Assembly: GCA_016204005.1 (NCBI GenBank) | Contig: JACQLS010000021.1 | Span: 1 to 39,910, forward strand | Direction: 5' to 3' | Source: Parcubacteria group bacterium | GTDB taxonomy: Bacteria > Patescibacteriota > Minisyncoccia > Phycocordibacterales > UBA2135 | DNA length: 39,910 nt | In this document: piece after piece, positions 22,374 to 39,910 of the stretch | Numbering within the stretch: the first letter of the stretch is position 1 | How the letters are laid out: every line of letters starts with the position of its first letter | Position numbers and translations under genes: made by a program | The notes under the pieces: generated by a model | Database searches by the model: none | What the model saw: only the letters and a program-made list of their open reading frames with translations | Told to the model about the DNA's origin: nothing

Positions 22374-22428
22374 GAATGAAGAAAAGTATACCAAAAACTA
22401 AAGAAGTCACCGATTGACTTAACGGGGT

Positions 22429-23997: not shown

Positions 23998-24161
23998 TAT
24001 CTCCTTCTGCCTTCTCTCCTATATAAAGGGTATTAAACCCTATATTACGACTTCGCTCGGAGAAAATGAGAGCAAGCTCTTATTTCCCCTCCTCGCTCGT
24101 CGTAATAAGCACTTCGTCTTGTATAAACTCCTTGGCTCGGAAATGAGAAAGCCTTGCTTTC

Positions 24162-25607
24162 TCATTTCTCTCGCTCTACATCGTTTATAATGGAAAATTC
24201 ATCTGCGAGGTTTCCCTTCCGTCTCATTACTAAGAATCCTATACTACTGCCGCCAACAAGCAAAAGGAGGAAGAAAATCGCTAAGGGCCCGCTCCCTACG
24301 CCGGGAGCGCTACCAACTCTGGCGAGCGCCTGGTGTTTTTCGACCACCCTTTCGGCTTCTTCTTTGGGAGCTGGCGATAGCTTTTTCTCTGCAACGGAAG
24401 GTCGAGGAGGAACGACTTTCATGGGTAAGACCTTCGGCACTTCGGCTATCTGTGTTGTTGGTGGCTGTACTTGCAACACTGCAGTCTTGCCATTTGGATA
24501 GAGGAGTTCTGTATGTGTATCGTTTAAAAAACCTGTCACGGAACCGGGGAAAATTATTTCTTTTTTAGACAGAAGGAAGGAGTGCTCTGGAATGCGGAAA
24601 TAGAGACCGCCGTGTTTTAGGAGCCAACCCGACAGGTCAAGCTCGTGACTTGAATTGTTTTTTATCTTTACAAAAAGCTCTCCGCTTTCTTCTGTCTGTG
24701 TAATAGAGAGAGCGATACTCTCCGCTTCAACCACCAGACGATCCCCGGCACTATATTCCCCCGAAGCGGCATCGAGCACTACTACGTATGTCCCGGGGTA
24801 ACGGAAAATGTGAGAGACATGCTTCCCCTCTTTTGTTGTCCCGTCTCCAAAATTCCACATATACCGAGCGTTGGCGATAGCCTCCCCCTCGAAACCATAT
24901 GCTTCTCCAAGAAATGATGCTCCCGCTCCGACTATCACTGTTTTTGTTTCCTTCTTTATCTTTACTGTTATCGTTTTTATTGGTGGAACCGCTGAAAAAG
25001 TAGCAGGTTGGCCGACCGTGGCACCCGTTTCCGTGCCCACCTCTTCTTCCGGTGGGGAGATCTCTTCTTCATTCTCACCCCCGCCACCTGTTACTCCCTG
25101 GTTTTGGGCTCGCGGTGAAGGCGTCCCAGTCATCCAGGAAACGCCATTCCATTGCATTGTCTCTTTCGTCGTATTATTACCCCCACTCCAACCGCTCGTC
25201 TGGTCAAGCTCGTCTATAATTGCTCCGCTCTGGTCTTTTAGGGCCAGATGCTCCCCGCTATTCCCCAAGGCTCCAGTGTACAGCAAATCAGCGACAATGC
25301 CTGGCACAGAGTCATCGTCGGGGCGCTCGAGGAGGAAAAACCCACCCGCCGCAATTGTCCCACCCAAAAGAATATTTGGCGAACCGTCAGCCGCAACGAG
25401 TTGCCACCCATCAAGGATAATGGCTTCACTGCCATCATTGTAGAGCTCAATCCACTCGTCGTTGTAAGAAGTGACTGTGCCCATCCAAGCAATCTCATTA
25501 ATGCGTACGGTTGCCCCAACACTAAGCGGGAGTAAAAAGAATATGAAGAGTAATGCGCGAAACATTATCTTCCATTGTAAGCGCGTTGCGGACACGTGCA
25601 ATTGCAT
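24162..25607 (-). CDS. Secreted/anchored surface protein: lamin-tail domain (LTD) + PKD domain + second LTD-like region + C-terminal TM anchor
   Basis: Signal-like MFRALLFIFFLLPLSVGA (ATG 25565 is an alternative start). LTD RINEIAWMG...DEWIELYN. PKD WNFGDGTTKEGKHVSHIFRYPGTYVVVL. C-terminal GPLAIFFLLLLVGGSSIGFLVMRRK. Confidence 0.7.
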   Translation of the reverse strand: MQLHVSATRLQWKIMFRALLFIFFLLPLSVGATVRINEIAWMGTVTSYNDEWIELYNDGSEAIILDGWQLVAADGSPNILLGGTIAAGGFFLLERPDDDSVPGIVADLLYTGALGNSGEHLALKDQSGAIIDELDQTSGWSGGNNTTKETMQWNGVSWMTGTPSPRAQNQGVTGGGGENEEEISPPEEEVGTETGATVGQPATFSAVPPIKTITVKIKKETKTVIVGAGASFLGEAYGFEGEAIANARYMWNFGDGTTKEGKHVSHIFRYPGTYVVVLDAASGEYSAGDRLVVEAESIALSITQTEESGELFVKIKNNSSHELDLSGWLLKHGGLYFRIPEHSFLLSKKEIIFPGSVTGFLNDTHTELLYPNGKTAVLQVQPPTTQIAEVPKVLPMKVVPPRPSVAEKKLSPAPKEEAERVVEKHQALARVGSAPGVGSGPLAIFFLLLLVGGSSIGFLVMRRKGNLADEFSIINDVEREK

Positions 25608-25673
25608 CTTCTCTTGTGCTGTGTTCTACAACAAAACCGATCACTTGGAGTAATCGGTTTTGTTGTGCTAACC

Positions 25674-27749: not shown

Positions 27750-27800
27750 AAGGAAAAACAAGCTCTATACTCTATATTATGTAACTAGTTCACGACTTGG

Positions 27801-29120
27801 TCAATTTGAAGCATTCACTGGTGCGGGCAGAAGCGCGTCACGCGTATACGTATTAGCGGCATCCCACATCATCCAGGAATCAAGGCCGACGTCGTATGTT
27901 GCTTGTATTTGCTTCCGCACCATTGCGGCATCATAGGTCGCGCCGAGATTAAAGTCCTGCAGCCATGGACGAAGCTTCTCTGAAGTTGAACTGGCCGTAA
28001 GCATTCTTTGGACACCGCGGTTCATCGAGTAATGCACCACTTCGTACGGATTCGCAGCCGGACTTGCAAGGCCGATAAAGCCCTTTGGGTAATGTGATGG
28101 ATATACCATCGGGGCAATGTAATCAAAATATGGTTCGACATATTCGAGTATTTGCCCGATATTTAAGTCGTCCTTATTCGTCATGGTCATGCCAAACAAA
28201 TCAGCCGAAAGCACGGGGACGATGCTTCGTTTTGCGATTGTATTTGATTCGTAGAACGATGGGTTTTTCAACGTTGTGTGCAAGTGCTTAAAAAAATCGC
28301 GCATAATCTTTGCCTTGCCCAGCGCCGGATCCGCAGCAATTCGAGCATTACTGTAGGAATAGTAAATGTCGCGCATATTACCGTCCGAGGGGAAGCGAAT
28401 GTAATCAAAGTTGAGTTCATCAAAACCTATTTCGTAAGACTCCCTTGAGAGAGCGGTGGTGTAGTCCCACGCTTCTTTGGCGCCAGGGTCAATGAATGAG
28501 AGGCCCTTGTAATCAGTCCAGACTGTTGATGTCGCGCTTTCCTTCTTCACAGCCCACTCCGGTTTTACTTTCGAAAGGTACGGATCTTGGAAAACGGTAA
28601 TGCGCCCGATAACATAAACGTTTCGCCTGTGGAGGTCGGCAATAAATTCCCGAATATCCTGAATGCGCTTCTCAGCTGCGCCAAATCGAACCAAGAGAGG
28701 ATCCGTAACCTCGAAAGAGATGCGCCCAGAGTAATCCTTGATATCAATGACGATTGCGTTCAACTCCGTTTCATCGATAAGACGCACAAGCTCGGCACGA
28801 CGCGACCGAGTGCCGGCAACCCAACTGGTCATGTAGATGGCTCGCACTTCCTCGGGCAATGCGACATGGGTCGCAACAAAAGGCTTCGGCTCTTCTCCGG
28901 CGGGCACGCCGTTTGCCTCACCAACGCCCGCCTCATACACAGCTGGCGCGAAAATAGGAACCCCCCAATGCGCAAAGGAGACAACTCCGCCCACGACAAA
29001 AACCCCCGCAAATATGAGCGCGGAGCGCGCTTTTATCAGGCGGAGTAGAGATGATAACGATTTAATTAGGCGCCTCTTCTTCACGGGGTGTTGGTCTACT
29101 AATGTTCTTTCTTGGGGCAC
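27801..29120 (-). CDS. Membrane-anchored putative glycoside hydrolase (DUF4015-like TIM barrel)
   Basis: N-terminal TM ALIFAGVFVVGGVV. FDELNFDYIRFPSDG is typical of the DUF4015 putative glycosyl hydrolase family. Confidence 0.6.
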   Translation of the reverse strand: MPQERTLVDQHPVKKRRLIKSLSSLLRLIKARSALIFAGVFVVGGVVSFAHWGVPIFAPAVYEAGVGEANGVPAGEEPKPFVATHVALPEEVRAIYMTSWVAGTRSRRAELVRLIDETELNAIVIDIKDYSGRISFEVTDPLLVRFGAAEKRIQDIREFIADLHRRNVYVIGRITVFQDPYLSKVKPEWAVKKESATSTVWTDYKGLSFIDPGAKEAWDYTTALSRESYEIGFDELNFDYIRFPSDGNMRDIYYSYSNARIAADPALGKAKIMRDFFKHLHTTLKNPSFYESNTIAKRSIVPVLSADLFGMTMTNKDDLNIGQILEYVEPYFDYIAPMVYPSHYPKGFIGLASPAANPYEVVHYSMNRGVQRMLTASSTSEKLRPWLQDFNLGATYDAAMVRKQIQATYDVGLDSWMMWDAANTYTRDALLPAPVNASN

Positions 29121-29301
29121 TTTTTGTCACGGGAGGGGCAGTACGAAGAAATCGTTCCCGCGCGATGATGAGAAGCATGAGGACAGAAATGGAAAGGCCG
29201 AACGCAACGTAAAAAAACGTTTTCCAACCTCCCGGAAAACCTAAGAAAGGCATAAGAAAAGTTCCGATCCCCAATGCAAAAATTATCCAGTGTTTTTCCA
29301 T
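29062..29301 (-). CDS. Small membrane protein (79 aa, two TM helices)
   Basis: MEKHWIIFALGIGTFLMPFLGFPGGWKTFFYVAFGLSISVLMLLIIA. Overlaps the start of the downstream gene by 59 nt, so one of the two starts is uncertain. Confidence 0.45.
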   Translation of the reverse strand: MEKHWIIFALGIGTFLMPFLGFPGGWKTFFYVAFGLSISVLMLLIIARERFLRTAPPVTKSAPRKNISRPTPREEEAPN

Positions 29302-29341
29302 ACAATATTAGGATTAAGATTCCTTTAAGTATACCACAACC

Positions 29342-30025
29342 CTACGCTCCCGACACCACAATAACAAACTCTCCCCTCACTTTATCGGGGTTGGATTCCA
29401 AATACGCCATCACCTCCTTCGCGGTGCCCCGTATCACTTCCTCATGAATCTTCGTCAGCTCTTTGGCTACAACAACAAGGCGATTTTCGGAAAGGTGCTC
29501 CGCGAGCGAGGATAGCGTTTTCATGAGACGGTGGGGAGATTCACAGAAGACGACAGTCCGCTCCTCCTTCGCAATTTCACCGAATAGTGTTTGCCGCCCC
29601 TTTTTGTGTGGCAAAAATCCTAAAAAAAGAAACTCTGACGCCGGTACTCCGGAGATCGAAAGCGCCGCAACAACCGCTGATGGCCCGGGAATGGCAACAA
29701 TGCTTACTTCGTCGCCAAAACGCTCCCGCACCAATGCGACAAGTTTAACCCCGGGGTCCGAAATGGTCGGGGTACCAGCATCTGAAACCAGGGCGAGATT
29801 TTTGCCCTCGCCAAGTAAGGCCAAGATTTTGTCGGTCTTCTTGAGGGTGCTCTGAGCATGATAACTCTCTACCGGGGTCTTTATATCATGCCGCAGAAGT
29901 AGCTTTTTTGTTACACGCGTGTCTTCGCACACTATCAAATCCACTTCCTTAAGTATCCTGAGCGAACGAAGCGTGACATCTTCCAAGTTCCCTATGGGTG
30001 TTCCCACAATGTAAAGCGTTGGCAT
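29342..30025 (-). CDS. rsmI: 16S rRNA (cytidine1402-2'-O)-methyltransferase
   Basis: MPTLYIVGTPIGNLEDVTLRSLRILKEVDLIVCEDTRVTKKLL is the characteristic RsmI (tetrapyrrole-methylase fold) N-terminus. Confidence 0.85.
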   Translation of the reverse strand: MPTLYIVGTPIGNLEDVTLRSLRILKEVDLIVCEDTRVTKKLLLRHDIKTPVESYHAQSTLKKTDKILALLGEGKNLALVSDAGTPTISDPGVKLVALVRERFGDEVSIVAIPGPSAVVAALSISGVPASEFLFLGFLPHKKGRQTLFGEIAKEERTVVFCESPHRLMKTLSSLAEHLSENRLVVVAKELTKIHEEVIRGTAKEVMAYLESNPDKVRGEFVIVVSGA

Positions 30026-30027
30026 GA

Positions 30028-31347
30028 TTATGACATTATCAGTTCTTCAGCGATTTTATAAATGTCTCCGGCTCCTATCGTGAACACAACGGTTTCTCGG
30101 CCTGTATTCTGTTTCAGATATTCCCCAACTGATTGAAGGTCTGAAAACCCATGGGCCTGTTTCCCTGTGTGTCCAACTGCTTCAGCAAGCACGTGCGCGT
30201 TTATGCTCGGATCTTCTTCCTCGCGAGCGGCATAAATGGGAGCAATGAGCACTTCATCAGCATCCTCAAAACTCTTGGCAAAATCATTAAAAAGAAGCTT
30301 TGTTCTGCTGTAGAGATGCGGATGGAAAACGGCAATGATGCGTTTGGAGGGAAATTGCGCGCGCGCCGTTTTAAGCGTCGCCTTAATCGCGGTTGGATGA
30401 TGCGCATAGTCGTCATATACAAGAGCACCTCTTGAGGTCTCTCCTTTGTATTCAAATCGTCGCCATGTGCCGACAAAAAAAGAAAGGGCCTCGCGGGCCG
30501 CGCTTTCGGCAATAGGAGTACTCTGTTTCATTTTATTGAACGCCGAGACGGCGCCGAGCGCGGCTTGGGCATTTTTCTTGTTGTGCTCGCCTGGCACATT
30601 GAGAGAGAGCGTGTTCACGTCCATTTTTGCATAATCGATGACAGAAGCGTTGATGTCTCCAACGGCCGACATAACAACCTGGTCGTTCGCGTTGGAAACG
30701 ACAAAACCTCCTTTTGGCACCTTGGACGCAAGTTCATGAAATGCTTGCTTGATATTCTCGAGGTTCTTATAAAAATCGAGGTGGTCTTCCTCAATGTTAG
30801 TGATGACCAAAATGGCGGGATGGAGATGTAGAAAGTGCCGCTTGTGTTCGCACGCTTCAACAATAAAAAGGTCACTCTCTCCCGGTACAAAGTTGCTTCC
30901 GTACTTTTTCAGGAGACTCCCGACAATGACCGTCGGCTTATGTCCTGCGCGGATAAAAATCTCCGCAATCATTCCGGTCGTCGTGGTTTTCCCGTGTGTG
31001 CCCGAAATCGCTATGGTTAATTTCCCTTTTGACACAGTGCCAAGTGTTTCAAAGTAATTAAGGACTGGCACGGAGAGCGTACGCGCACGCATAAGTTCCG
31101 GATTATCCTCGGAAATAGCGGCCGTGTAGACCACCACATCAACATCGGCTGGAACATTACTTTCTCTTTGTTCAAATGAAACCCCAATCCCCTTTCGCTC
31201 CAAAAGCTCCGTCACTGGAGAGGGCTCTCGATCAGAGCCCGTGACAATCGCCCCCTCATGCAAAAAAAGCTGGGCAAGCGCCGACATGCCAATACCACCA
31301 ATACCGATGAAATGGGCCTTTTTAACCTTCTTCACGTCGAAAGACAT
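30028..31347 (-). CDS. murC: UDP-N-acetylmuramate--L-alanine ligase
   Basis: Trimmed to ATG 31347 (MSFDVKKVKKAHFIGIGGIGMSALA). GTHGKTTTTGMI P-loop. The ATG sits 6 nt after a TATACT -10. Confidence 0.9.
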   Translation of the reverse strand: MSFDVKKVKKAHFIGIGGIGMSALAQLFLHEGAIVTGSDREPSPVTELLERKGIGVSFEQRESNVPADVDVVVYTAAISEDNPELMRARTLSVPVLNYFETLGTVSKGKLTIAISGTHGKTTTTGMIAEIFIRAGHKPTVIVGSLLKKYGSNFVPGESDLFIVEACEHKRHFLHLHPAILVITNIEEDHLDFYKNLENIKQAFHELASKVPKGGFVVSNANDQVVMSAVGDINASVIDYAKMDVNTLSLNVPGEHNKKNAQAALGAVSAFNKMKQSTPIAESAAREALSFFVGTWRRFEYKGETSRGALVYDDYAHHPTAIKATLKTARAQFPSKRIIAVFHPHLYSRTKLLFNDFAKSFEDADEVLIAPIYAAREEEDPSINAHVLAEAVGHTGKQAHGFSDLQSVGEYLKQNTGRETVVFTIGAGDIYKIAEELIMS

Positions 31348-31353
31348 GGCTTC

Positions 31354-31404
31354 AGTATAGCGAAACAGATGACTGTTGACAACTATATGTAAAAATGGTA
31401 ACAA
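31354..31404. promoter_or_regulatory. Back-to-back divergent promoters sharing the -35 region: murC TTGTCA-17-TATACT (minus) and TTGACA-17-(TGg)TAACAA (plus)
   Basis: The murC ATG starts 6 nt after its -10. The -35 hexamers overlap at 31376-31382. Confidence 0.6.
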
Positions 31405-31407
31405 ACT

Positions 31408-31833
31408 ATGAGTCCCCTCAAACGACTGGTGCGAACGATGGCAACCAAACTGAACAGACGCGACCAAGCTATCGTCGATTGGTTCAAGAAGAATCGTCCG
31501 GAAGATGCCCCAAACGTCAGGGATGTCCTTTTGGGAGACGACCCTCGTGATCGGGGTGTGCAAGCTCTCGCTGCCTGCGTTTTCGAGGCCGGACGCCAGT
31601 TCCAGAACGAAAACCCTGGCACTACGCCAGGTGACGTCAACTGTTACTTGCACGATGTCCCGCTTCCCGAAAAGCCGAGACCAAAGAAAATTGTCACCCG
31701 CAAGGATGGTGACTACTTCCGCGCGAAGGTCGGCGAAGGAGAGGAGGTCAAAGCCCTAACGGAATCCGGGGCCATTGCCAAACTTATCCAGACCCATCCT
31801 GAACTATTCGGGATTGAGATCGACTTTCAATAG
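31408..31833 (+). CDS. Hypothetical protein (141 aa)
   Basis: Track ORF with TTGACA-17-TAACAA promoter (31376-31404) and an intrinsic terminator (31858-31885). No recognisable motif. Confidence 0.5.
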   Translation: MSPLKRLVRTMATKLNRRDQAIVDWFKKNRPEDAPNVRDVLLGDDPRDRGVQALAACVFEAGRQFQNENPGTTPGDVNCYLHDVPLPEKPRPKKIVTRKDGDYFRAKVGEGEEVKALTESGAIAKLIQTHPELFGIEIDFQ

Positions 31834-31857
31834 ATACAATTGCGAGTACGTTACGGG

Positions 31858-31885
31858 CGGGGGTGTTCTGCACTCCCGTTTTTTT
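31858..31885 (+). terminator. Intrinsic terminator after ORF 31408..31833
   Basis: CGGGGGTG-TTCTG-CACTCCCG followed by T7. Confidence 0.75.
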
Positions 31886-31960
31886 ATTGCCCCGACGTGA
31901 TTGACGACAAAGAAAAAACCGTGTAATAAAGACAGAGAACTTCTACGCGGGTAGCGCTTC

Positions 31961-32779
31961 ATGCGTTACGCAAGACACTCCGGAAACGCCCTGGTTGTGG
32001 TGTGTGGGAAGCGCTCCCTCGACCACCTCACCGGCTTTCGTGTCGGTTGGAATGATCGCTCGGATAAAAACGAGGCACCGCCATTCTTTGGAACGCTCGC
32101 GCAGTTCGCACGTTCCCAAAGCTGGATTACGCCGCACATTCTCGCCCCCGACATCACCGCCTTTACTGGAAATGTTGTCTCCGAAGCTGACCTGGACCGA
32201 TGCTTTTACGCAAAGGGTGTGAGTATCTACTGGGGATGCGCCGCTGATGGGGTCACTATTCCTCCGGGGTATACTGCATTTTTCCCAACAGGCGACTGTC
32301 CAACAATCGTCGCCCATCACTACCCATCGCAGAAGCTAATTGCCGCACATGCAGGACTTAAATCACTTCTTCCAGAAGGGAAGGTTGTGAAGAATGTCCT
32401 CGCCTCGTTTGATGCAAAGATCCCCAGAGAAGAAATCTTCGTGCACGTTATTTGTTCTATCGCACCGACGCACTTTGTATACTCACCGCACCACCCACTC
32501 TACGGTGAGGGGAACAGAAAGATCTTGGATGAGATCCGCGCAATAGACAAACGATCGGCAAGCGATGAGGGTGAGATCAATCTCTATCGCCTCATCCATT
32601 CGCTGTTACGCCAAAACGGAGTGCCCGCCCAAAACATAGACACGGACGGGCTCGATACATTTAGTGACGCTGATCTTTGGAGTCACGTGCGAGGAGAACA
32701 AGGACGCAACGGTATTTTTGTCATCAATAAAAAGCCTAGAGACGCCTCGGATAGCGACCGAGGCTTTTGTTTTTCTTAG
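31961..32779 (+). CDS. Divergent YfiH/PgeF-like (DUF152, laccase-domain) protein
   Basis: TGDCPTIVAHHYPSQKLIAAHAGLKSL compares with ADC-P...AA-HAGWRG. The C-terminal NLYRLIHSLLRQNGVPAQNIDTDGLDTFSDADLWSHVRGE compares with the YfiH C-terminus. It sits between murC and murD. Confidence 0.55.
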   Translation: MRYARHSGNALVVVCGKRSLDHLTGFRVGWNDRSDKNEAPPFFGTLAQFARSQSWITPHILAPDITAFTGNVVSEADLDRCFYAKGVSIYWGCAADGVTIPPGYTAFFPTGDCPTIVAHHYPSQKLIAAHAGLKSLLPEGKVVKNVLASFDAKIPREEIFVHVICSIAPTHFVYSPHHPLYGEGNRKILDEIRAIDKRSASDEGEINLYRLIHSLLRQNGVPAQNIDTDGLDTFSDADLWSHVRGEQGRNGIFVINKKPRDASDSDRGFCFS

Positions 32780-32793
32780 AGCCCGCTCACCTC

Positions 32794-34128
32794 TTAAATC
32801 TCGTTGACGAGTTTTGTGAACTGATCCCCGCGGTCATATTCATTCTTGAACAAGCCGAAAGAGGCAAACGCCGGAGAAAAGAGAATCGTATCCCCCCGCT
32901 CCGCTTTTTTCAATGCCATTTCAAGCGCCTCTTTCAAACTGAAAACTTTAATTAGGGTGTAGGTTGCAGGTTCTAGGTGTAACTTTTCTGTGCCAGTACC
33001 AGGAAGTAGCACGACTGTTTTGCAATATGTTGGCAATACTTCCAAAAGACCTCCCATGTCGAGCCCCTTGTCTGCGCCGCCCATAATGAGGATGGTATTG
33101 GGCGCTCCTTTATGAAGCGTCTTTAGCGATGCGAGGGTCGCGTCGGGCGAAGTTGCGTTCGTATCGTTATAGAACTTCAGACCATTTATTTCGCGTAGAA
33201 GCTCGATTCGTCCAGGTAGACCCTTGAACGCTTCGAGTGCTTTTTTTGACACCTCGTCAGAAACACCGAGCGCGCGAACCGCCTCAAGCGCAAGTGATGC
33301 ATTGTAACGGTTGTGGTCGCCCGGGATGGCGAGCTTCCAATGCGTGGGAAGCCCGGCCTCATCTGCGACCACGACCGTTCCGTGGATATCTTTTTTGTAC
33401 TTCTCAATTGCTCCTAAAGCCTGACTCCCAACAATGAGTGTGTCGTCTTGTTTTTGGTAAAGAAAAATGTTCGCCTTGTCTTGAAGATACGCATCCATAT
33501 CCCCTTTGTAGTAATTCATGTGGTCAGGATATAACGTCGCAAACACAGAAATGTTCGGACTTATCTTGCTTTCTCCGAATCCTTGGAGTTGCCACGAATC
33601 GAGCTCAAAGACGCCAATCGATTGGGCTCGTACTTCCTTGAGGAGTGGGAGTGTGGCAACGCCGCGAACATTGCCGCCCAAAAGCACATGCTGCCCCGAT
33701 GCCTTTAGGACATCCGCGATCATATGCGTAATGGTGGACTTACCCCGCGTGCCCGTTACTCCGACGATCGGTATTCCGGCAAGACGCGCGAAGAGCGACG
33801 CGCTCATCTCTATGGGGATGTTGCGCTTCCTTGCTTCATCAATATACGGAGAATGAGATGGCACCCCTGCCCCGCGCAAGATAAAATCCTTGTCTTGAAA
33901 ATCTTCCAGGCGATGTTCCCCGAGAACAAAGGATACGTTCGGGAAGTGTTTGAGCTTGTCTGTTGATTCTCTAAGATCTTCCTCCGACTTGAGATCGGTC
34001 ACCACGAGTGAGGCTCCGCACTCAGCTAAAAACGCGGCATCACCAACGCCCCGCCCAAGGAGCCCGAGACCAGCTACTGTTATTTTCTTGCCGCGAAATG
34101 GTTCACAAAAATCCCTTTGCATATTCAT
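32794..34128 (-). CDS. murD: UDP-N-acetylmuramoylalanine--D-glutamate ligase
   Basis: KKITVAGLGLLGRG N-terminus, GVTGTRGKSTITHMI P-loop, 444 aa. Confidence 0.9.
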   Translation of the reverse strand: MNMQRDFCEPFRGKKITVAGLGLLGRGVGDAAFLAECGASLVVTDLKSEEDLRESTDKLKHFPNVSFVLGEHRLEDFQDKDFILRGAGVPSHSPYIDEARKRNIPIEMSASLFARLAGIPIVGVTGTRGKSTITHMIADVLKASGQHVLLGGNVRGVATLPLLKEVRAQSIGVFELDSWQLQGFGESKISPNISVFATLYPDHMNYYKGDMDAYLQDKANIFLYQKQDDTLIVGSQALGAIEKYKKDIHGTVVVADEAGLPTHWKLAIPGDHNRYNASLALEAVRALGVSDEVSKKALEAFKGLPGRIELLREINGLKFYNDTNATSPDATLASLKTLHKGAPNTILIMGGADKGLDMGGLLEVLPTYCKTVVLLPGTGTEKLHLEPATYTLIKVFSLKEALEMALKKAERGDTILFSPAFASFGLFKNEYDRGDQFTKLVNEI

Positions 34129-34189
34129 ATTCTACAACACATATCGGCCTAGATATGTGACAGGTCGCCATGGGTTGATTGAAAAAGAC

Positions 34190-34218
34190 TTGACTTTTCA
34201 GTAGTATTATGATACAAT
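34190..34218 (+). promoter_or_regulatory. Near-consensus promoter TTGACT-17-TACAAT driving the high-GC ORF 34270..35052
   Basis: Hexamers at 34190-34195 and 34213-34218. The leader contains hairpin GCTCCC-N7-GGGAGC. Confidence 0.6.
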
Positions 34219-34269
34219 AATAAAGGTACCAACGCTCCCTTATGCGGGGAGCCCTTCGGAGGAACGCAC

Positions 34270-35052
34270 ATGAACATGTTGATGAAGCAGCTGATGGTTC
34301 AGTGGTTCGCGTACCGCCTCGCTTGCGGCCCAAACTGCGAGTGCGCCGCGGAAACCTTGCGGCACCTCGAACTGCTCGCACGGCTTGAGCAGGTCAAGCG
34401 TCGAGCCCAGGAACAGCAGCGCCGCAACCAGATGGTCGCAGTCGCCGGACGCTTGAGCCCCGCGATGGCGTTCATTGTCGAGAGCACCTTGGCACAGGCA
34501 TCGATCGACAGCGAGGTCGCCGAGGTCACGTTCAAGGCCACGTCGATCAGCTCGACCGGCATCTCGATGGCGACGGTTACGATCGACCCCGACGGCTACT
34601 CGGCGGAGTCGGTCTCGCTCGAGGTCAGCGTCGACCACGAAGATGTGGTCCACGGCGACGGCTTCACCATGCACCCCGTGGACGACTGGCACATCCCGGG
34701 CGGACACCTTGACGATGGGATCTCCACCGAAGCGGCGATGCGCGAAGCTCTGGCGGAGGCCAACTTGGCAATCGTCGGCGGCGGATCGCTTCGTGACGTG
34801 GGTGACCAGTGGGAACGGAGAATGGCAGACCTTCAAGCGAATCTGCCCTTCGCCGACTTCGGGACTCGTCGCAGTTCGAGTTGGGCCCACAGCCACCTCA
34901 CCGAACGGGTCGCCGCCATGAGAAGTCGGAATGGACGGCAGCGTATGCCGCTCAATATCATGGCACTCGAGCCCTCGGTTGAGTCGCGGCGGCCTCCGCA
35001 GCGTTTGCTGGCTTCGCCGCCGGCGACGCTGAGGCTGACATACCAGCCGTAA
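34270..35052 (+). CDS. Hypothetical acidic protein encoded by a high-GC cassette
   Basis: 260-aa ORF. GGAGGAA at 34258-34264 lies 5 nt before the ATG. Very GC-rich third positions (GTC GCC GAG GTC ACG TTC AAG GCC...). A sampled line is 65% GC. The opposite-strand and other-frame ORFs are Arg-rich shadows. Confidence 0.6.
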   Translation: MNMLMKQLMVQWFAYRLACGPNCECAAETLRHLELLARLEQVKRRAQEQQRRNQMVAVAGRLSPAMAFIVESTLAQASIDSEVAEVTFKATSISSTGISMATVTIDPDGYSAESVSLEVSVDHEDVVHGDGFTMHPVDDWHIPGGHLDDGISTEAAMREALAEANLAIVGGGSLRDVGDQWERRMADLQANLPFADFGTRRSSSWAHSHLTERVAAMRSRNGRQRMPLNIMALEPSVESRRPPQRLLASPPATLRLTYQP

Positions 35053-35069
35053 CGGACTGAAGAAAAAAT

Positions 35070-35097
35070 GGCGGGAGCGCATGAGCGCGCTCCCGCC
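35070..35097 (+). terminator. GC-rich 11-bp hairpin after the high-GC ORF (no clear U-tract)
   Basis: GGCGGGAGCGC-N6-GCGCTCCCGCC, then ATTACTATTTT. Confidence 0.5.
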
Positions 35098-35109
35098 ATT
35101 ACTATTTTG

Positions 35110-35135
35110 GGGGAGAAAAATACTCCTCTTTTTTT
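35110..35135 (+). terminator. Second, host-style terminator
   Basis: GGGGAG-AAAAATA-CTCCTC followed by T7. Confidence 0.55.
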
Positions 35136-35153
35136 ATGCTACAATGGCTCATT

Positions 35154-35408
35154 ATGGAATTGGTTACTCTCATCGGCTTTCTGGCAGGCACCTTTACGAC
35201 GATTTCATTCTTGCCGCAAGTTATCAAAATTTGGAAAACAAAGGAGACAAAAAGTATTTCACTTTTAATGTACGTCTCCTTTACCGTGGGTGTCGCTTTG
35301 TGGCTATGTTACGGCATACTGCTTAACGAAGCACCTTTATATGTTGTAAACGGCGTAACTTTGGTACTCACATCTTCGGTCCTCTTCCTCAAGATCAAAT
35401 ACGGCTAG
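35154..35408 (+). CDS. SemiSWEET / PQ-loop sugar transporter (84 aa)
   Basis: Three TM helices with FLPQVIKIWKTK (PQ motif). Start set at ATG 35154, 8 nt after TGcTACAAT. Confidence 0.75.
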   Translation: MELVTLIGFLAGTFTTISFLPQVIKIWKTKETKSISLLMYVSFTVGVALWLCYGILLNEAPLYVVNGVTLVLTSSVLFLKIKYG

Positions 35409-35419
35409 TACTACTAAAA

Positions 35420-35443
35420 AGGCGCGCCCATGGCGTGCCTTTG
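35420..35443. terminator. Bidirectional terminator between SemiSWEET and the small membrane ORF
   Basis: AGGCGCGCC-CAT-GGCGTGCCT flanked by A5 and TTT. Confidence 0.65.
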
Positions 35444-35457
35444 CATTACCTTTGTAA

Positions 35458-35646
35458 TCAACGCGAGAGTGTTAATCCGCCCAAGCGTGTGAGGATGCGA
35501 TCCAACAGTACAAAGGTAAAGCCGAGACCGGAGGCAACAGCAAGCGAAAGGAAAAATGCTTCATCGAGCTGTCCGTTGTGGAGAAACATAAAGATACCGC
35601 TTGAAACTACCGCGCCAAGATACAAGAACGGGAGCAAGACCTTCAT
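35458..35646 (-). CDS. Small membrane protein (62 aa)
   Basis: MKVLLPFLYLGAVVSSGIFMFLHNG...LAVASGLGFTFVLL. Flanked by two bidirectional terminators. Confidence 0.45.
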   Translation of the reverse strand: MKVLLPFLYLGAVVSSGIFMFLHNGQLDEAFFLSLAVASGLGFTFVLLDRILTRLGGLTLSR

Positions 35647-35701
35647 TTTCACAACCCCGTATTTATTCTTTCCACATACTACAGGCGATCAAGAAGAAGT
35701 C

Positions 35702-35743
35702 AAAAAACACTCCAATGATCTTGAGATTGTTGGAGTGTTTTTT
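35702..35743. terminator. Bidirectional terminator downstream of the peroxiredoxin gene
   Basis: A6-ACACTCCAA-N14-TTGGAGTGT-T6. Confidence 0.7.
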
Positions 35744-35761
35744 GATCCGCGAGAAAGATAT

Positions 35762-36307
35762 CTACTGCGCTGATTTTAAATACTTAAGCATCGTGTCTGC
35801 GCCACTCACTTCAAAAGGGTCTTGGGGGCTGTTATCCATAAATCCCGGCTCTATGAACGCCTTTTTGATTTCGCCATCTTCGACATAAGCACTATAGCGC
35901 CATGAACGAGCGCCAAAGCCGAGGTTATCCTTGCGCACGAGCATGCCCATTTTTTCGGTGAATTCACCCGATCCGTCAGGGATGAGCCGCACCTTTTTAA
36001 AACCAAGCTTTTTGCCCCACGCATTCATTACGAATGTATCATTCACTGAAAGGCAGAAGACATCATCAATGCCAAGTTTCTTAAATTCGTCGTAATGATC
36101 TTCGTATCCGGGGAGGTGCCTTGAATCACATGTCGGCGTGAATGCTCCCGGCAATGCAAAGAGCACCACTTTCTTGCCCCTGAAAAGATCGCCTGTAGTG
36201 ATGTTCTGCCAATCACGCGCGTCATCTCCGCAAACATTTTCATCACTCACCCGAGTGCGAAACATCACATCGGGAACATGCTTTGGTAATTGCGGTGTTT
36301 TAGTCAT
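35762..36307 (-). CDS. Peroxiredoxin (Prx5-type, AhpC/TSA family)
   Basis: KVVLFALPGAFTPTCDSRHLPGY contains the peroxidatic PGAFTPTC motif. Confidence 0.85.
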   Translation of the reverse strand: MTKTPQLPKHVPDVMFRTRVSDENVCGDDARDWQNITTGDLFRGKKVVLFALPGAFTPTCDSRHLPGYEDHYDEFKKLGIDDVFCLSVNDTFVMNAWGKKLGFKKVRLIPDGSGEFTEKMGMLVRKDNLGFGARSWRYSAYVEDGEIKKAFIEPGFMDNSPQDPFEVSGADTMLKYLKSAQ

Positions 36308-36344
36308 GCTTTTTTATATTCTTGATTATGAATAATGTTACAAA

Positions 36345-36426
36345 TGGGCGTGGAGAGATTCGAACTCTCAACCCTTGCGGGATACGCTTCTGAAGCGTAC
36401 GCGTATGCCAGTTCCGCCACACGCCC
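36345..36426 (-). tRNA. tRNA-Leu (anticodon CAG), class II with long variable arm, CCA not encoded
   Basis: Minus strand GGGCGTG-TG-GCGGAACTGGCATACGCG-TACGC-TTCAGAA-GCGTA-TCCCGCAAGGGTT-GAGAG-TTCGAAT-CTCTC-CACGCCC-A. All stems pair. TTGCCT-17-TATTCT promoter just upstream. Confidence 0.9.
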
Positions 36427-36482
36427 AAAGATATTTAAAGAATAGAGGAACCCAAAAGGAAAGGCAATTCTATATATAGCGA

Positions 36483-36527
36483 GAGCCCCAAGCGGAGACG
36501 CGTTAGAACGCGTTCCGCAAGGGGCTC
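36483..36527 (-). terminator. Long GC-rich imperfect hairpin after the high-GC two-gene cassette (no U-tract)
   Basis: GAGCCCC-AA-GCGGA-G-ACGCGT-TAG-A-ACGCGT-TCCGC-AA-GGGGCTC. Confidence 0.45.
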
Positions 36528-36550
36528 CATTGCGACGTGGCCGACTGACG

Positions 36551-36724
36551 TTAGTGGCGTGCGCCGCATGCAGACGCACGCGAACGCCGATCTGCCTCGG
36601 CCATGCAGACGCCCATGAAGATACTCAAGAGCGCGACGCACACGCCGAGCATGATGACGATCGGGTCGGTGGCGGTGTAGATGAGCGCGAGGAACTGAGC
36701 GAAACCGGTGATGAATTCGATCAT
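36551..36724 (-). CDS. Small membrane protein (57 aa) of high-GC cassette
   Basis: Below the track cutoff. My own translation is MIEFITGFAQFLALIYTATDPIVIMLGVCVALLSIFMGVCMAEADRRSRASACGARH. AAGGAG at 36731-36736 lies 6 nt before the ATG. Confidence 0.5.
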   Translation of the reverse strand: MIEFITGFAQFLALIYTATDPIVIMLGVCVALLSIFMGVCMAEADRRSRASACGARH

Positions 36725-36755
36725 TGTGGTCTCCTTGGTCTTGGGGGTTGGGAGT

Positions 36756-37064
36756 CTAGCCGACTTCAGGTCGGCCGATGCGCCAGTTGGCGCGAATCCA
36801 GTCGGCGAACCGTTTCGGCCAATTGATCATCCATACGGCCTGCGCAAAACAGCAGAGCGAGATGATGATCAAGATGGTCAAGGCGACTACTTGAGTCGTC
36901 GTCGGGGGCGCTAGGTTCAGGATTGAGATGTTGACGAACACCACAGTGAGCCCACCCAACACAAACCAGTAACCGCGTGTAGTGGGACCATGAGCAAAGC
37001 CTCGCGGGGCCAGAAGGGCTAACACGGCACCCACAAGAGCGAGCGCCACGAGCACGTTCGCCAT
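36756..37064 (-). CDS. Membrane protein (102 aa, about 3 TM) of high-GC cassette
   Basis: Start set at ATG 37064 (MANVLVALALVGAVL...), preceded by AAGGAGG at 37073-37079 with an 8-nt spacer. Sampled lines are about 58% GC. Confidence 0.6.
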   Translation of the reverse strand: MANVLVALALVGAVLALLAPRGFAHGPTTRGYWFVLGGLTVVFVNISILNLAPPTTTQVVALTILIIISLCCFAQAVWMINWPKRFADWIRANWRIGRPEVG

Positions 37065-37142
37065 GCTTTCTTCCTCCTTCAAGGTACTTCTCCACGGCCC
37101 AATGCCGTAGAGGGTCTCGGTTCCTTAACCGATTATGCTTTA

Positions 37143-37171
37143 ATTATATCATATTTCACATATTAAGTCAA
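37143..37171 (-). promoter_or_regulatory. Consensus promoter TTGACT-17-TATAAT driving the two-gene high-GC membrane-protein cassette
   Basis: Reverse complement of 37166-37171 is TTGACT and of 37143-37148 is TATAAT. The spacer is exactly 17 nt. Confidence 0.65.
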
Positions 37172-37240
37172 CCTTGAAGACGGGCTTGAAAAACCAGCTC
37201 TGTTGGGATATTCTCGGCGGAGACCCAGTGGAGAAAAACC

Positions 37241-37945
37241 ATGTCTCTCGTCTGCCATGAATGCGGCAATGACATACAGCCAAGCGATACCCTCCCCGCG
37301 CGCGAAGGTGGGATAATTCATCCTAATGTGATTTCACTTGCCTGGTTCCCTGACGGAAAGACATGGACGCGTGTGTTCGTGGAAGCGCCTCAAGGGATAG
37401 CGTGCTGCCTCGAATGCGTCGGGCGAAGTGTCCCTGGATACGATTTTGAACGCCTGACAAAGCTCACTCATGTTTGCGATGCTTACAACGCCGAAGTGAC
37501 GCTTAGGCGGCACGAGCAGAGCATGGAGGGTAAATGGATAGATATGGGAGGAAGGGAATTCAAGCGAAAACTCAAACTCGAAACTGCTTGGGAAGAAAAG
37601 TTGAAATTGGTCCCGACTGACGTCTGCCTCCTATGCAATGCAGACGTGTCGACAAATACAAAACCTTTTTTCACTTTCAAGGTGATGGACCGAGCTCATG
37701 GAGAAAAGCGACGTTCAGGCTTCGGTTCTTACCAATGGTCCCATATCAAGACGGGTGCAACTCATTTCTCTATCTGTTTTGCCTGTTGTCACACCCACCT
37801 ACCTCGCATATTCGAACAGATAAGCAACGAGCTCCGACAGACAGGGCAGTCAAACTTAGGTGAAGTTTGCAAGTCAGAACTGGTCATATCACCCGAGGTG
37901 ATTGATGAACTCCTTAAGGAGTCTGGCAACAAGTTTGTCCAGTAA
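37241..37945 (+). CDS. Cys-rich hypothetical protein with two zinc-ribbon-like modules
   Basis: CHEC...CCLEC in the N-terminal half and CLLC...CFACC in the C-terminal half. GGAG lies 7 nt before the ATG. Promoter TTGAAA-17-TATTCT and terminator 37953-37978. Confidence 0.55.
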   Translation: MSLVCHECGNDIQPSDTLPAREGGIIHPNVISLAWFPDGKTWTRVFVEAPQGIACCLECVGRSVPGYDFERLTKLTHVCDAYNAEVTLRRHEQSMEGKWIDMGGREFKRKLKLETAWEEKLKLVPTDVCLLCNADVSTNTKPFFTFKVMDRAHGEKRRSGFGSYQWSHIKTGATHFSICFACCHTHLPRIFEQISNELRQTGQSNLGEVCKSELVISPEVIDELLKESGNKFVQ

Positions 37946-37952
37946 TCACAGC

Positions 37953-37978
37953 AAACCCACGACATGTCGTGGGTTTTT
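37953..37978. terminator. Bidirectional terminator after the Cys-rich ORF and after the tRNA 3'-half element
   Basis: AAACCCACGA-CATG-TCGTGGGTTTTT. Confidence 0.7.
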
Positions 37979-37991
37979 AAAAGTCAGATGT

Positions 37992-38077
37992 TGGTGGGCG
38001 TGGAAGGAATCCTTCGACTTCGCTCAGGACAAGTCGAACCGGAGTTTATCCGCCTCTGGCGGAACCTCTGTCTTATA
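37992..38077 (-). other. tRNA 3'-half-like element with encoded CCA (aberrant T arm, 45-nt insertion)
   Basis: Minus strand TATAA-GACAG-AGGT-[TCCGCCAGAGGCGGA TAAACTCCGG TTCGACTTGTCCTGAGCGAAGTCGAA]-GG-ATT-CCTTC-CACGCCC-A-CCA. GACAG and CACGCCC are complementary to CTGTC and GGGCGTG of the 5' fragment at 38335-38371. Confidence 0.55.
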
Positions 38078-38317
38078 ATTGCAAACGAGGAAGAAAATGA
38101 AAATGCTATTTTCATTTTCTCCGAGCGCCGCAATTATATCTTGTGCATATAAACACAAACGAGGGAGAAAATGAGAGGGCGTACTTCTCTGTGTGCGGGC
38201 GGAAAGAATCGAACTTTCGACCTCTGTCTTATCAGGACAGCGTTCTACCACTGAACTACGCCCGCACACAAAAAACTAAAAGAGCTCTCTCACTTTTCCC
38301 GAGTGCCGTGTTTATAT
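38074..38317. repeat. Duplicated promoter/leader modules flanking tRNA-Ile
   Basis: 38074-38100 versus 38148-38174 are 23/27 identical. 38113-38139 versus 38291-38317 are 20/27 identical. An AT-rich 11-bp hairpin GAAAATGAAAA-N5-TTTTCATTTTC lies at 38093-38119. Confidence 0.65.
38194..38265 (-). tRNA. tRNA-Ile (anticodon GAU), CCA not encoded
   Basis: GCGGGCG-TA-GTTC-AGTGGTA-GAAC-G-CTGTC-CTGATAA-GACAG-AGGTC-GAAAG-TTCGATT-CTTTC-CGCCCGC-A. All four stems are Watson-Crick. Confidence 0.9.
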
Positions 38318-38337
38318 CATGATATACATCATGATAT
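38313..38337. repeat. Two copies of the palindrome ATCATGAT (as the 10-nt direct repeat ATCATGATAT, 12-bp phasing) in the spacer of the putative tRNA-Ile promoter
   Basis: Cores at 38316-38323 and 38328-38335. The first is embedded in the 14-bp palindrome TATATCATGATATA. Confidence 0.7.
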
Positions 38338-38371
38338 CAAGGACAGCGTTCTACCACTGAACTACACGCCC
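38335..38371 (-). other. tRNA 5'-half-like element (acceptor strand, D arm, 5' anticodon-stem strand), truncated in the anticodon loop
   Basis: GGGCGTG-TAGTTCAGTGGTAGAACG-CTGTC-CTTGATA. 26 consecutive nt (GTAGTTCAGTGGTAGAACGCTGTCCT) are identical to the intact tRNA-Ile, but the acceptor strand differs. It has its own TTGCGA-17-TACTAT promoter. Confidence 0.6.
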
Positions 38372-38385
38372 TCAGCAATGGCGTC

Positions 38386-38414
38386 ATAGTACCAAAAAAC
38401 CTCTATCCTCGCAA
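38386..38414 (-). promoter_or_regulatory. Promoter TTGCGA-17-(TGg)TACTAT upstream of the tRNA 5'-half element
   Basis: Hexamers at 38409-38414 and 38386-38391 (minus strand). The fragment starts 14 nt downstream of the -10. Confidence 0.55.
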
Positions 38415-38419
38415 CGGAT

Positions 38420-38447
38420 TTGCATAAAAAAAGACTTGTGGTATGCT
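38420..38447 (+). promoter_or_regulatory. Promoter TTGCAT-16-(TGg)TATGCT of the orphan GC-rich unit
   Basis: Hexamers at 38420-38425 and 38442-38447. A similar TGGTATGCT element occurs at 11971-11979 upstream of the asnB-like gene. Confidence 0.45.
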
Positions 38448-38453
38448 TTTCAA

Positions 38454-38750
38454 CTGGGAGCAAAACCAGGAGGTTGAGTGGTAATGAGGGACACGCATGC
38501 GGTTTAAGAGCGGTGAAAATGGTACACCGATTCGGGCAGATGAGGGAAGAAGTCGTGAACCGGGAGACAAGCCGGCCACATCCGCACCAAAGAACCCACG
38601 CACACAGGTGCGCCGACACCAACGTGCACGAGCACGAGTACGCGTCAAATCTCCGGACGACCCGCGCCGTCTCCCTTCTCAACTACAATTGGCGGAATCT
38701 ACCGCGCGATAAAAGCACCGTATCCCGCAGCGTTACAGACGCTGCTTTTT
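38454..38750 (+). ncRNA. Candidate orphan transcription unit: structured GC-rich ncRNA of unknown class, or a 71-aa Arg-rich small protein (38497..38712)
   Basis: TTGCAT-16-TGgTATGCT promoter (38420-38447), about 295 nt at roughly 58% GC, ending in GCAGCG-N7-CGCTGC-TTTTT (38727-38750). An internal ORF has GAGGGA 5 nt before ATG 38497. All ORFs here are low-complexity. Confidence 0.35.
38727..38750 (+). terminator. Intrinsic terminator of the orphan GC-rich unit
   Basis: GCAGCG-TTACAGA-CGCTGC-TTTTT. Confidence 0.6.
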
Positions 38751-38780
38751 AATGCTTGCATCTATGTTACAATACCCCTC

Positions 38781-39665
38781 ATGAGCGGAGACATATCTCA
38801 AAAAATTGTTGGTATCTACCACAAGAACTGCTTGGACGGCACAACTGCCGCCGCAGTGCTTCTCAAGCGATTCCCCAACGTACAGCTCTACTCCCTTGTG
38901 CGCTGGTATACCCCAGAGGACTTTGACCGTATACTCCATGATGTCGATGATACGACTATTGTCTACATTGTTGACTTCGGCTTAAACGAAGCAGAAGCTG
39001 TAAAACTTGCGGACAAGGCAAAAGAGGTAATCAACATTGACCACCACATCGGAACGAAAGAGGAAATCGAGAGCTTTGCAAAAAATCGCAGCAACTTCAC
39101 CTTCATCTTCGACAACGACCACGCAGGCGGCTCGCTTTCATGGATACACTTCTACGGCGAAGAGGGCATGCCAAAGTTTGTTCGCCTTGCCGAGCAAATT
39201 GATCTCTTCAAATTCACTCCGGACAATGAAGCCCACTCTCTTGCGGCAAATGCCACCTTTCTTATGAACAAACCCGAGGTGGTAAAAGAATACCTAGATG
39301 GAGACATAACTCCCCTCCTCCAAAAAGGAGCGGCGATACAAGAATTCCAAAATGCACTCGTCGAAGAATTCATGATAGGTGCCGAGCCGACTATGCTTAA
39401 GATCGGTGAGAAGCTTGTGCGCGCATATAATGCACCCGTCTTTCTCCGCTCAGAAATCGGCCACCGTCTCTCGACACAGTTTAATGAAGCGGTTGTCATT
39501 TTTCGCTTTATGGGAGAAGGCGTCCGATTGAGTTTTCGAGGAAACGACACCGACAACCCTTCCGCCATGGAGCTTGCAGAAGCGCTTGGGGGCACAGGTC
39601 ATCGGAATGCCGCAGGAGCCTTCGCGACTACCGAACAATTCATGAACATGATCGTCCACAAATAA
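38781..39665 (+). CDS. DHH/DHHA1-family phosphoesterase (NrnA-like)
   Basis: CLDGTTAAAVL, INIDHHIG (DHH motif) and GGTGHRNAAGAF (DHHA1 GGGH motif). The ATG lies 7 nt after TGtTACAAT. Confidence 0.8.
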   Translation: MSGDISQKIVGIYHKNCLDGTTAAAVLLKRFPNVQLYSLVRWYTPEDFDRILHDVDDTTIVYIVDFGLNEAEAVKLADKAKEVINIDHHIGTKEEIESFAKNRSNFTFIFDNDHAGGSLSWIHFYGEEGMPKFVRLAEQIDLFKFTPDNEAHSLAANATFLMNKPEVVKEYLDGDITPLLQKGAAIQEFQNALVEEFMIGAEPTMLKIGEKLVRAYNAPVFLRSEIGHRLSTQFNEAVVIFRFMGEGVRLSFRGNDTDNPSAMELAEALGGTGHRNAAGAFATTEQFMNMIVHK

Positions 39666-39688
39666 AAAACGTCACATTGACGTTTTTT
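39664..39688. terminator. Bidirectional terminator between the DHH gene (+) and the 16S rRNA gene (-)
   Basis: AAAAAACGTCA-CAT-TGACGTTTTTT directly after the DHH stop codon. Confidence 0.7.
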
Positions 39689-39832
39689 ATTTGTAAAAAA
39701 TGAGGAGAGATGCTTTTTATTTTGTTCCGTTCACTACAGTCTCAACTTAGGGTTCCGAGACCAACACCTTCGTCTCACTTGTGATGAGACGATCGCCTGA
39801 TAAGACCTTAAACAATGTTTGAGGTCGCCTTA

Positions 39833-39910
39833 TCTGAAATAGTTCCACGAGCAGCTTCCGCTACCCGTGCCTTGTTACGACTTAGTCCCTGTCACCGAGC
39901 TTACCTTAGG
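39833..39910 (-). rRNA. 16S rRNA gene, 3'-terminal ~78 nt (rest beyond right edge); 3' boundary approximate
   Basis: The reverse complement reads ...GGGACTAAGTCGTAACAAGGCACGGGTAGCGGAAGCTGCTCGTGGAACTATTTCAGA. It contains the universal AAGTCGTAACAAGG and a well-paired helix 45 with a GGAA loop. Confidence 0.85.

Follow-up and report, generated by a model that had tools for sequence, protein, structure and literature searches.

An A/U-rich 16S rRNA 3' tail in place of the anti-Shine-Dalgarno core in a Parcubacteria group genome and its order relatives

The window analyzed here, a stretch of 39,910 nucleotides (nt) that forms the whole of contig C5 of a Parcubacteria group genome (G000; 632,713 bp in 43 contigs, 81.6% complete), carries at its end the last 78 nt of a 16S rRNA gene (39910..39833, minus strand), the rest of which runs off the contig. 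The 13-nt tail of this gene does not contain CCUCC, the core of the anti-Shine-Dalgarno (anti-SD) sequence. We consider it very probable that the segment is the true 3' end of the one 16S gene detected, that it lacks the canonical anti-SD as does the rest of the order, and that most genes of the genome start without a Shine-Dalgarno (SD) helix. Infernal/cmscan aligned the segment with positions 1456-1533 of the 1533 positions of RF00177 (SSU_rRNA_bacteria) at 47.5 bits (E 1.2e-12), short of the 50-bit gathering score owing to the small part of the gene (78 nt) contained in the window. Helix 45 with its GGAA tetraloop, as expected of a bacterial small-subunit rRNA, was present. The tail that follows it, GAACUAUUUCAGA, was aligned by the model with the consensus GAUcACCUCCUUu (also written GAUCACCUCCUUu; canonical tail, GAUCACCUCCUUA), with AUUUC (39840..39836) occupying the place of CCUCC. 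A preliminary description made from the sequence had reported an intact helix 45 and the replacement of CCUCC by AUUUC; the replacement was exact to the base, by sequence and by alignment, and the helix is intact at 39869..39846, the interval 39833-39862 given earlier being its loop, its 3' strand and the tail.

The preliminary description had named a second rRNA operon with a canonical tail, which would make this copy a pseudogene, as one finding that would overturn it. A search of the assembly returned one 16S 3' end and one 5' end: the first ~59 nt of the gene and its leader were located by blastn of the relatives' 16S loci against the genome at the end of contig C41, the body of the gene is an assembly gap between C41 and C5, and no second 3' end was found in this 81.6% complete genome. 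The possibility that the copy is a pseudogene or an artefact of assembly or binning, with a working, canonically tailed 16S gene elsewhere, draws on the short part of the gene that lies in the window, on the incompleteness of the genome and on the absence of the window region from the same-genus genome G001, yet we regard it as highly improbable. When the DNA reads of a public groundwater run (X1, possibly the source sample of the genome) were assembled separately, a 343-nt contig covered 39560..39853 with no differences, and thus the tail is not a contig-end error. The window from 20001 to 39800 was collinear with 305.7-324.1 kb of contig C3 of G005, a genome of the same family, where it adjoins the 16S gene, and also with G002, G006 and G007; this agreement with the 16S neighborhood of relatives marks the window as a genuine chromosomal region. 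In G001 the flanking contig is simply missing, as none of its contigs carries a 16S 3' end. The tail type and the covariation of helix 45 in relatives, described next, likewise argue against a pseudogene.

Aligning the gene with 16S sequences of related lineages, a check that had been proposed at the outset, placed the tail in a wider group. Among 40 relatives of the same family and order (genomes of 0.5-1.1 Mb), a 16S match was found in 20, always with one 16S gene per relative, and the 3' end was recovered in 18. In all 18 the tail was A/U-rich and had no CCUCC. Helix 45 was invariant across 19 distinct order-level sequences, save for one covarying pair (G-C in 10, C-G in 9), and this covariation indicates that the relatives' 16S genes are functional. 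The order consensus of the tail was GA(A/U)(U/C)(A/U)(A/U)UU(C/U)(A/C)A, with an invariant GA after the helix and a conserved UU(C/U)(A/C)A core. Across the same 19 sequences conservation fell to background ~17 nt past helix 45, a decay that a short functional tail would be expected to give. Judged from these alignments, the whole order appears to have swapped the canonical tail for an A/U-rich one, and the loss of the anti-SD appears to be a lineage trait rather than an artefact or a broken copy.

The same question was put to a class-wide sample of 301 genomes drawn evenly, 177 of which had a 16S 3' end. CCTCC stood at the canonical distance in 71 of the 177, and the split followed families (for example, 11/12 and 7/8 versus 0/12 and 0/12). 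Intermediate tails such as GGAUCAUCUCCUUUC also occurred. Only G329 in the window's own order had a canonical tail; its helix 45 is of another type, and the contig may be foreign. Among public records that share the helix 45 and tail types of these genomes, titles included Kaiserbacteria, Nomurabacteria, Paceibacteria, Parcubacteria group and others, and many also bore 'Saccharibacteria' labels; the search pattern selects A/U-rich tails by construction and therefore yields names, not frequencies.

The sequence beyond the tail bears on where the 16S rRNA ends. Folding of 39862..39655 (minimum free energy, -64.3 kcal/mol; z, -4.59) gave a series of trailer hairpins, followed by a segment, UGAACGGAACAAAAUAAAAAGC, that can pair with GCUUUUUCUUUUGUUCCGUUCA, ~45 nt upstream of the 16S 5' end on C41, with one mismatch in 21 by hand count. 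The pairing was kept in relatives with compensatory changes (loci L001, L006 and L008), as GUUUCACUC/GAGUGAAAC in L001 and GUUCUGUUUUGAG/CUCAAAGCAGGAC in L006. This leader-trailer helix is predicted to be the usual pre-16S processing stem; located ~100 nt downstream of the tail, it would mark the primary processing site of the 16S rRNA, with a hairpin terminator next. RNase III was found in four of five genomes searched, the exception being the incomplete G000. As a separate observation, the trailer (~100-150 nt; window 39712-39834, loci L001-L021) contained order-conserved blocks, GGYCGAU and GGUCUCGGARC...GAGAC or CGGGAAAGACCG, and then GAACGGAACAAAAGAAAG. A simple terminator scan passed over the hairpin at 39658-39694 because its T run sits within the stem.

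A longer mature 16S rRNA, with the pyrimidine string CUCUCCUC at 39709..39702 or an ACCUC at ~39820 acting as a displaced anti-SD, would be a very unlikely alternative. The string does exist, several of the 5- and 6-mers enriched upstream of genes (GGAGA, GAGGAG and AGGAGA) are complementary to it, and contigs from two RNA libraries of relatives without the anti-SD reach 73-119 nt beyond helix 45, a weak hint that the trailer persists in RNA, as contigs cannot show ends. The organism itself was not found in any RNA run searched; the runs hold only the conserved part of 16S, again as contigs. On the other side, CUCUCCUC is situated past the 3' strand of the processing stem (39733..39712) and immediately ahead of the terminator, neither it nor ACCUC has a conserved counterpart in the 18 order relatives (same-family L008 and L012 included), the downstream CCUCC of relatives, where present, belongs to terminator stems, and tail conservation has decayed long before. 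Thus, the CUCCUC that the preliminary description had placed outside the 16S gene, within 39701-39712, is indeed outside it, and CUCUCCUC is probably a chance string.

We then scored SD usage across genes, counting an SD-like 4-mer (GGAG, GAGG or AGGA) at -18..-5 and using 50 kb of E. coli K-12 as a control of the procedure. Our gene set for G000 comprised 587 open reading frames (ORFs), with 559 usable starts. E. coli, with a canonical tail, had the 4-mer before 24 of 46 genes (52%; control windows, 3-7%), compared with 129 of 559 (23%; 7-13%) in G000. Other genomes with a tail without CCUCC had 16% (G005; control windows, 9-10%) and 12% (G020, of another family; 10-12%), while those with a canonical tail had 11% (G224; 8-9%) and 14% (G289; 14%). 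The free-energy profile, which had also been suggested as a check, agreed: the mean trough of the duplex with the canonical tail was shallow in G000 (-2.19 versus a baseline of -1.38 kcal/mol) and deep in E. coli (-4.57 versus -0.96 kcal/mol). Of the 15 genes mapped to the ribosomal-protein cluster of G000, 1 had an SD-like motif, as did 6 of the 31 called genes of the window. The class is SD-poor overall, whether or not the anti-SD survives; the SD signal is no stronger in the canonical-tail genomes G224 and G289, so that tail loss does not by itself account for SD poverty. A programmed frameshift site in prfB, a possible second readout of anti-SD use, was not seen: prfB was in a single frame in G001, G005 and G020, and the G224 gene was N-terminally short. 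This release factor 2 (RF2) gene of G224 (C1:273934-274656, locus L286) opens directly after a tRNA gene and matches the model only from position 110, and the protein is thus without the usual N-terminal domain.

These counts bear on two statements of the preliminary description, each of which held in part. The near absence of SD sequences before host genes is right insofar as the genome is SD-poor by every count given above, but it was put too strongly, as GGAG and GGAGG are enriched at -14..-9 and selectively retained. Similarly, the missing anti-SD fits the few SDs for the bulk of genes, whereas it leaves a conserved minority unexplained, and relatives that keep the anti-SD are equally SD-poor.

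A different signal was found upstream of many genes. A -10 box ending 6-7 nt before ATG is a known signature of leaderless mRNAs, and TANNNT began exactly at -12 in 63 of 559 G000 genes (~11%; background, 15.3 genes), while the extended form TGNTANNNT, with TG at -15/-14, stood at -15 in 24 genes versus a background of ~2. The same placement occurred in 72 of 595 genes in G001 and, most strongly, in 37 of 219 in G020, and the signature was kept in 28 of 41 G000-G001 orthologs. More generally, TANNNT, often after TGN, lay 12 nt before ~10-17% of start codons in G000, G001, G005, G020 and G224; G001 prfB (TATAAT-AGTACA-ATG) is one example. From established promoter geometry we infer that about a tenth of the genes would be leaderless, with a -10 box abutting the ATG.

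The minority of genes with SD-like motifs behaved differently from background in the window genome's family. GGAG began at -14..-9 in 71 cases in G000 (559 genes), 51 in G001 (595) and 64 in G005 (672), compared with roughly 13, 17 and 8 expected from flanking positions, and the top enriched upstream 5-mers in G005 were AAGGA, AGGAG, AAAGG and GGAGG. The 16S gene of G005 without an anti-SD, its only 16S match, lies within a 344-kb contig, and so the signal is independent of binning. In the 257 G000-G001 ortholog pairs whose starts could be aligned, G001 kept 16 of 23 strong motifs and had gained one in 6 of 234 (Fisher p about 1e-15). Composition was rejected as the cause because shuffling of the G001 upstream regions gave 1.9 retained motifs, and shared descent because a neutral simulation at a flank identity of 0.52 gave 5.0+-1.8 and reached 16 in 0 of 2000 runs. 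Coding overlap was rejected since 14 of 18 motifs were retained where the upstream gap was at least 30 nt or the neighbor divergent. Contamination was rejected as well: the contigs rich in such genes (C19, C35, C10, C27 and C38) have G001 orthologs with 67-82% median amino-acid identity. Nor do these genes form a family core, as 5 of 141 G000-G005 ortholog pairs had a strong motif and 1 retained it; for G020, G224 and G289 too few ortholog pairs were available to inform the comparison. Upstream of SD-like genes TANNNT was enriched at -70..-31 and depleted at -30..-11, and by this promoter spacing they appear to be leadered. They were slightly richer in GC (0.534 versus 0.496) and include IMP dehydrogenase, adenylosuccinate synthetase, a DHFR-HIT fusion and a class-II amidotransferase. 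The signal was absent from G020, which also lacks the anti-SD, and lower in canonical-tail G224 and G289 than in the window genome's family. Beyond Tsurumaki et al. 2022, whose supplements may bear on the point, we found no report in the literature of SD usage or conserved SD-like motifs in Parcubacteria without an anti-SD.

We tentatively suggest, as a possibility that we hold to be less probable than its alternatives taken together, that AAGGAGG, 5-9 nt before the start, is under purifying selection on ~10% of genes (leadered and mostly accessory or of nucleotide metabolism) and is either read by a non-classical partner or serves a role other than docking. The more specific version, in which ribosomes of the family still read AAGGAGG on a leadered subset of mRNAs through another partner (a protein, another rRNA segment or a retained 3' trailer), so that the anti-SD would have been relocated or replaced, is similarly doubtful. 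It is favored by the GGAG excess in the three family genomes, the G005 contig, the retention in G001 orthologs also where the upstream gap is at least 30 nt or the neighbor divergent, and the apparent leaders. However, no candidate partner emerged. A relocated anti-SD within 16S was rejected, as no CCTCC or CTCC was conserved in eight 16S genes without the anti-SD and none was common to the two family members; a separate RNA with a canonical tail was rejected, as 10-mers of GATCACCTCCTT occurred near chance in G000, G001 and G005, nearly all within long open frames, and two of the three had no occurrence in G005. The enriched AAGGAGG has no complement in the native tail and thus is not an SD by the genome's own tail, the core ribosomal-protein genes are without the motif, G020 shows no signal, and the motif could serve something besides initiation.

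Co-evolution of mRNAs with the new tail, through a matching motif such as UGAAAU, is very unlikely. The conservation of the tail over ~11 nt, with its UUYMA core, suggests some function, but GAAAT and TGAAA were not enriched upstream of starts, none of the 5-mers complementary to the native tails of G000, G005 and G020 was enriched, and the duplex with the native tail showed no trough upstream of starts, binding being if anything weaker at -15..-5. The accessible part of Amin et al. 2018 (PMC6107228) likewise reports no co-evolved SD in 128 organisms without the anti-SD.

We also searched for factors associated with the tail. A search for the ribosomal protein uL1 (PF00687) gave no hit in G000 (81.6% complete), G005, G020 or G224 and recovered it in G289 and in all 14 control genomes; G224 keeps the canonical tail even so. 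For Era, whose KH domain binds GAUCACCUCC (PMC10582724, accessible part), no match above the cut-off was obtained in any of five genomes, where only GTPase-domain fragments matched, in line with a statement that Paceibacteria are mostly without era (PMC12641178, accessible part). An S1-like multi-domain protein and IF3 were present in all five genomes, and bS21 had no match above the cut-off in the genomes searched.

Together these observations suggest the following course. A ribosome with an A/U-rich tail would be unable to form the canonical SD helix, and most genes would begin without one, about a tenth of them as leaderless mRNAs with the -10 box ending 6-7 nt before the ATG. The remaining genes, those of the ribosomal-protein operons included, have no purine-rich motif and would presumably depend on a start codon in an unstructured context, together with the S1-like protein and IF3. 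Loss of the tail may have been tolerated because SD use is low class-wide, even where the anti-SD survives, and Era is missing; with both known readers of the sequence gone, the tail was probably free to drift.

Several points weigh against this interpretation. Gene starts came from our own simple codon-usage ORF picker, not from a validated gene finder, and the taxon names were taken from public records of the shared tail type, not from the genome itself. The window was placed in the genome by binning, and in same-genus G001, which is 95% complete, only 6 of the 31 called window genes have matches, all at paralog level (28-39% identity). With the 16S body unassembled and the genome 81.6% complete, slight room is left for a second rRNA copy, and the mature 3' end is placed by conservation and the processing stem, so that its position stays a prediction. 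Finally, ~10% of the genes in the family have position-specific canonical SD-like motifs under apparent selection, which is unexpected where no reader remains.

The genome is that of a very small bacterium (about 0.6-0.7 Mb), probably of the Parcubacteria/Paceibacteria type within the candidate phyla radiation (CPR), a placement with which the genome sizes of 0.5-1.1 Mb agree. The features at the 16S end of the window are listed in Table 1. The 16S gene is transcribed alone and has its own hairpin terminator; 23S is unlinked to it, being 14 kb off in G005, 55 kb off in G224 and on a separate contig in G020. Housekeeping genes neighbor the 16S gene (two Mur ligases, an RsmI-type methylase and a redoxin). 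Amid the Mur ligase genes lies a 691-amino-acid (aa) protein (25674-27749, minus strand) with weak TraG/TrwB-like domains of type IV secretion coupling proteins. Contigs C23 (1/21) and C29 (1/18) resemble the window in that their genes are nearly without matches in G001, again at paralog level. An ~80-nt element (24022-24109), in which ARAGORN calls no tRNA, recurs at 76-91% identity on contigs C23, C18, C3, C38 and C35 of the genome and at many sites in G001, G003, G005, G007 and other family members. A palindromic element of ~45 nt (35700-35745) matches both of its own strands and sites in G001, G003 and G007 at 85-95% identity, and may be a shared terminator or repeat.

Table 1. Features at the 16S end of the window (positions in the 39,910-nt stretch)
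Feature	Position	Strand	Basis or remark
Helix 45, CACGGGUAGC-GGAA-GCUGCUCGUG (= CACGGGTAGC-GGAA-GCTGCTCGTG), intact	39869..39846	-	Sequence and alignment of relatives
13-nt tail, GAACUAUUUCAGA (= GAACTATTTCAGA)	39845..39833	-	Sequence and covariance-model alignment
Trailer hairpin 1, with non-conserved ACCUC within stem (~39820)	39799..39834	-	RNA fold
Trailer hairpin 2, CGUCUCA-UCACAAG-UGAGACG	39771..39791	-	RNA fold
Trailer hairpin 3, GGUCUCGGAACCCUAAGUUGAGACU	39738..39762	-	RNA fold; similar sequence in L002, L008 and L015
Predicted leader-trailer processing stem, 3' strand UGAACGGAACAAAAUAAAAAGC	39712..39733	-	Pairs with GCUUUUUCUUUUGUUCCGUUCA
Pyrimidine string CUCUCCUC	39702..39709	-	3' of processing stem, ~125-130 nt past tail, directly before hairpin terminator
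Palindromic terminator-like hairpin, ~20 bp, flanked by A-tract/T-tract	39658..39694	both	RNA fold; common to 16S transcript and convergent plus-strand ORF
Convergent ORF, 294 aa, DHH phosphoesterase family	38781..39665	+	Pfam DHH, E 3.5e-7; stands between 16S and tRNA-Ile
tRNA-Ile(GAU)	38193..38265	-	1.5 kb downstream of 16S, separate operon; order tRNA-Ile then 16S also in G005

Pairing of SD and anti-SD is the textbook mechanism of start-site selection, and lineages without the rRNA half show how dispensable it is and what replaces it. In Bacteroidetes, the anti-SD is reportedly present but occluded by bS21, bS18 and bS6, with few SDs genome-wide and a small subset of genes with strong SDs. 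The genome studied here resembles this pattern in its few SDs and small strong-SD subset; it differs in that the anti-SD is absent rather than occluded and that bS21 was not found above the cut-off. Mammalian mitochondria use leaderless mRNAs. Their 12S rRNA is a small-subunit rRNA without an anti-SD (PMC10582724, accessible part), but the organelle keeps an Era homologue, ERAL1, whereas no Era was found here and only ~10% of genes look leaderless.

Among bacteria with variant tails, Flavobacteriia, Mycoplasma and Carsonella (Amin et al. 2018, PMC6107228, and Lim et al. 2012 as cited therein) are similar in having a tail without CCUCCU, no SD matching the variant tail and membership in SD-poor clades. 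According to the accessible part of Amin et al. 2018, the 128 organisms without CCUCCU generally had no recognizable SD and never a co-evolved one. They 'also lacked a recognizable SD,' whereas the window genome's family, which belongs to a different phylum, has AAAGGAGG as its top enriched upstream 5-mer set. The closest precedent is the Parcubacteria subgroup of Tsurumaki et al. 2022 (RNA 28:1041; PMC9297842), which, in its accessible part, gives motif detection rates only and no analysis of SD usage. According to that part, 48% of Parcubacteria had a detected anti-SD motif, lineages without it overlap the group lacking uL1, and SD helices are 'thought not to form.' Our genomes agree with that subgroup in being small-genome CPR bacteria without CCUCCU at the 16S 3' end as a lineage trait, and in that uL1 was not found in G000, G005 and G020. 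The bare finding is thus a further instance of a loss already in print for Parcubacteria without uL1. Unlike that subgroup as described there, the window genome's family keeps a selectively retained SD-like subset, and G224, in which uL1 was not found, keeps the canonical tail. Beyond what the accessible part of that paper reports, relatives that keep the anti-SD are equally SD-poor and Era is absent, which fits a relaxation of constraint before the loss, leaderless-type promoters are common, and a conserved SD-like subset exists without a visible partner. If AAGGAGG were indeed read by a partner other than the tail, or had another role, the SD motif would be separated from its textbook partner in a natural system in which this can be tested.

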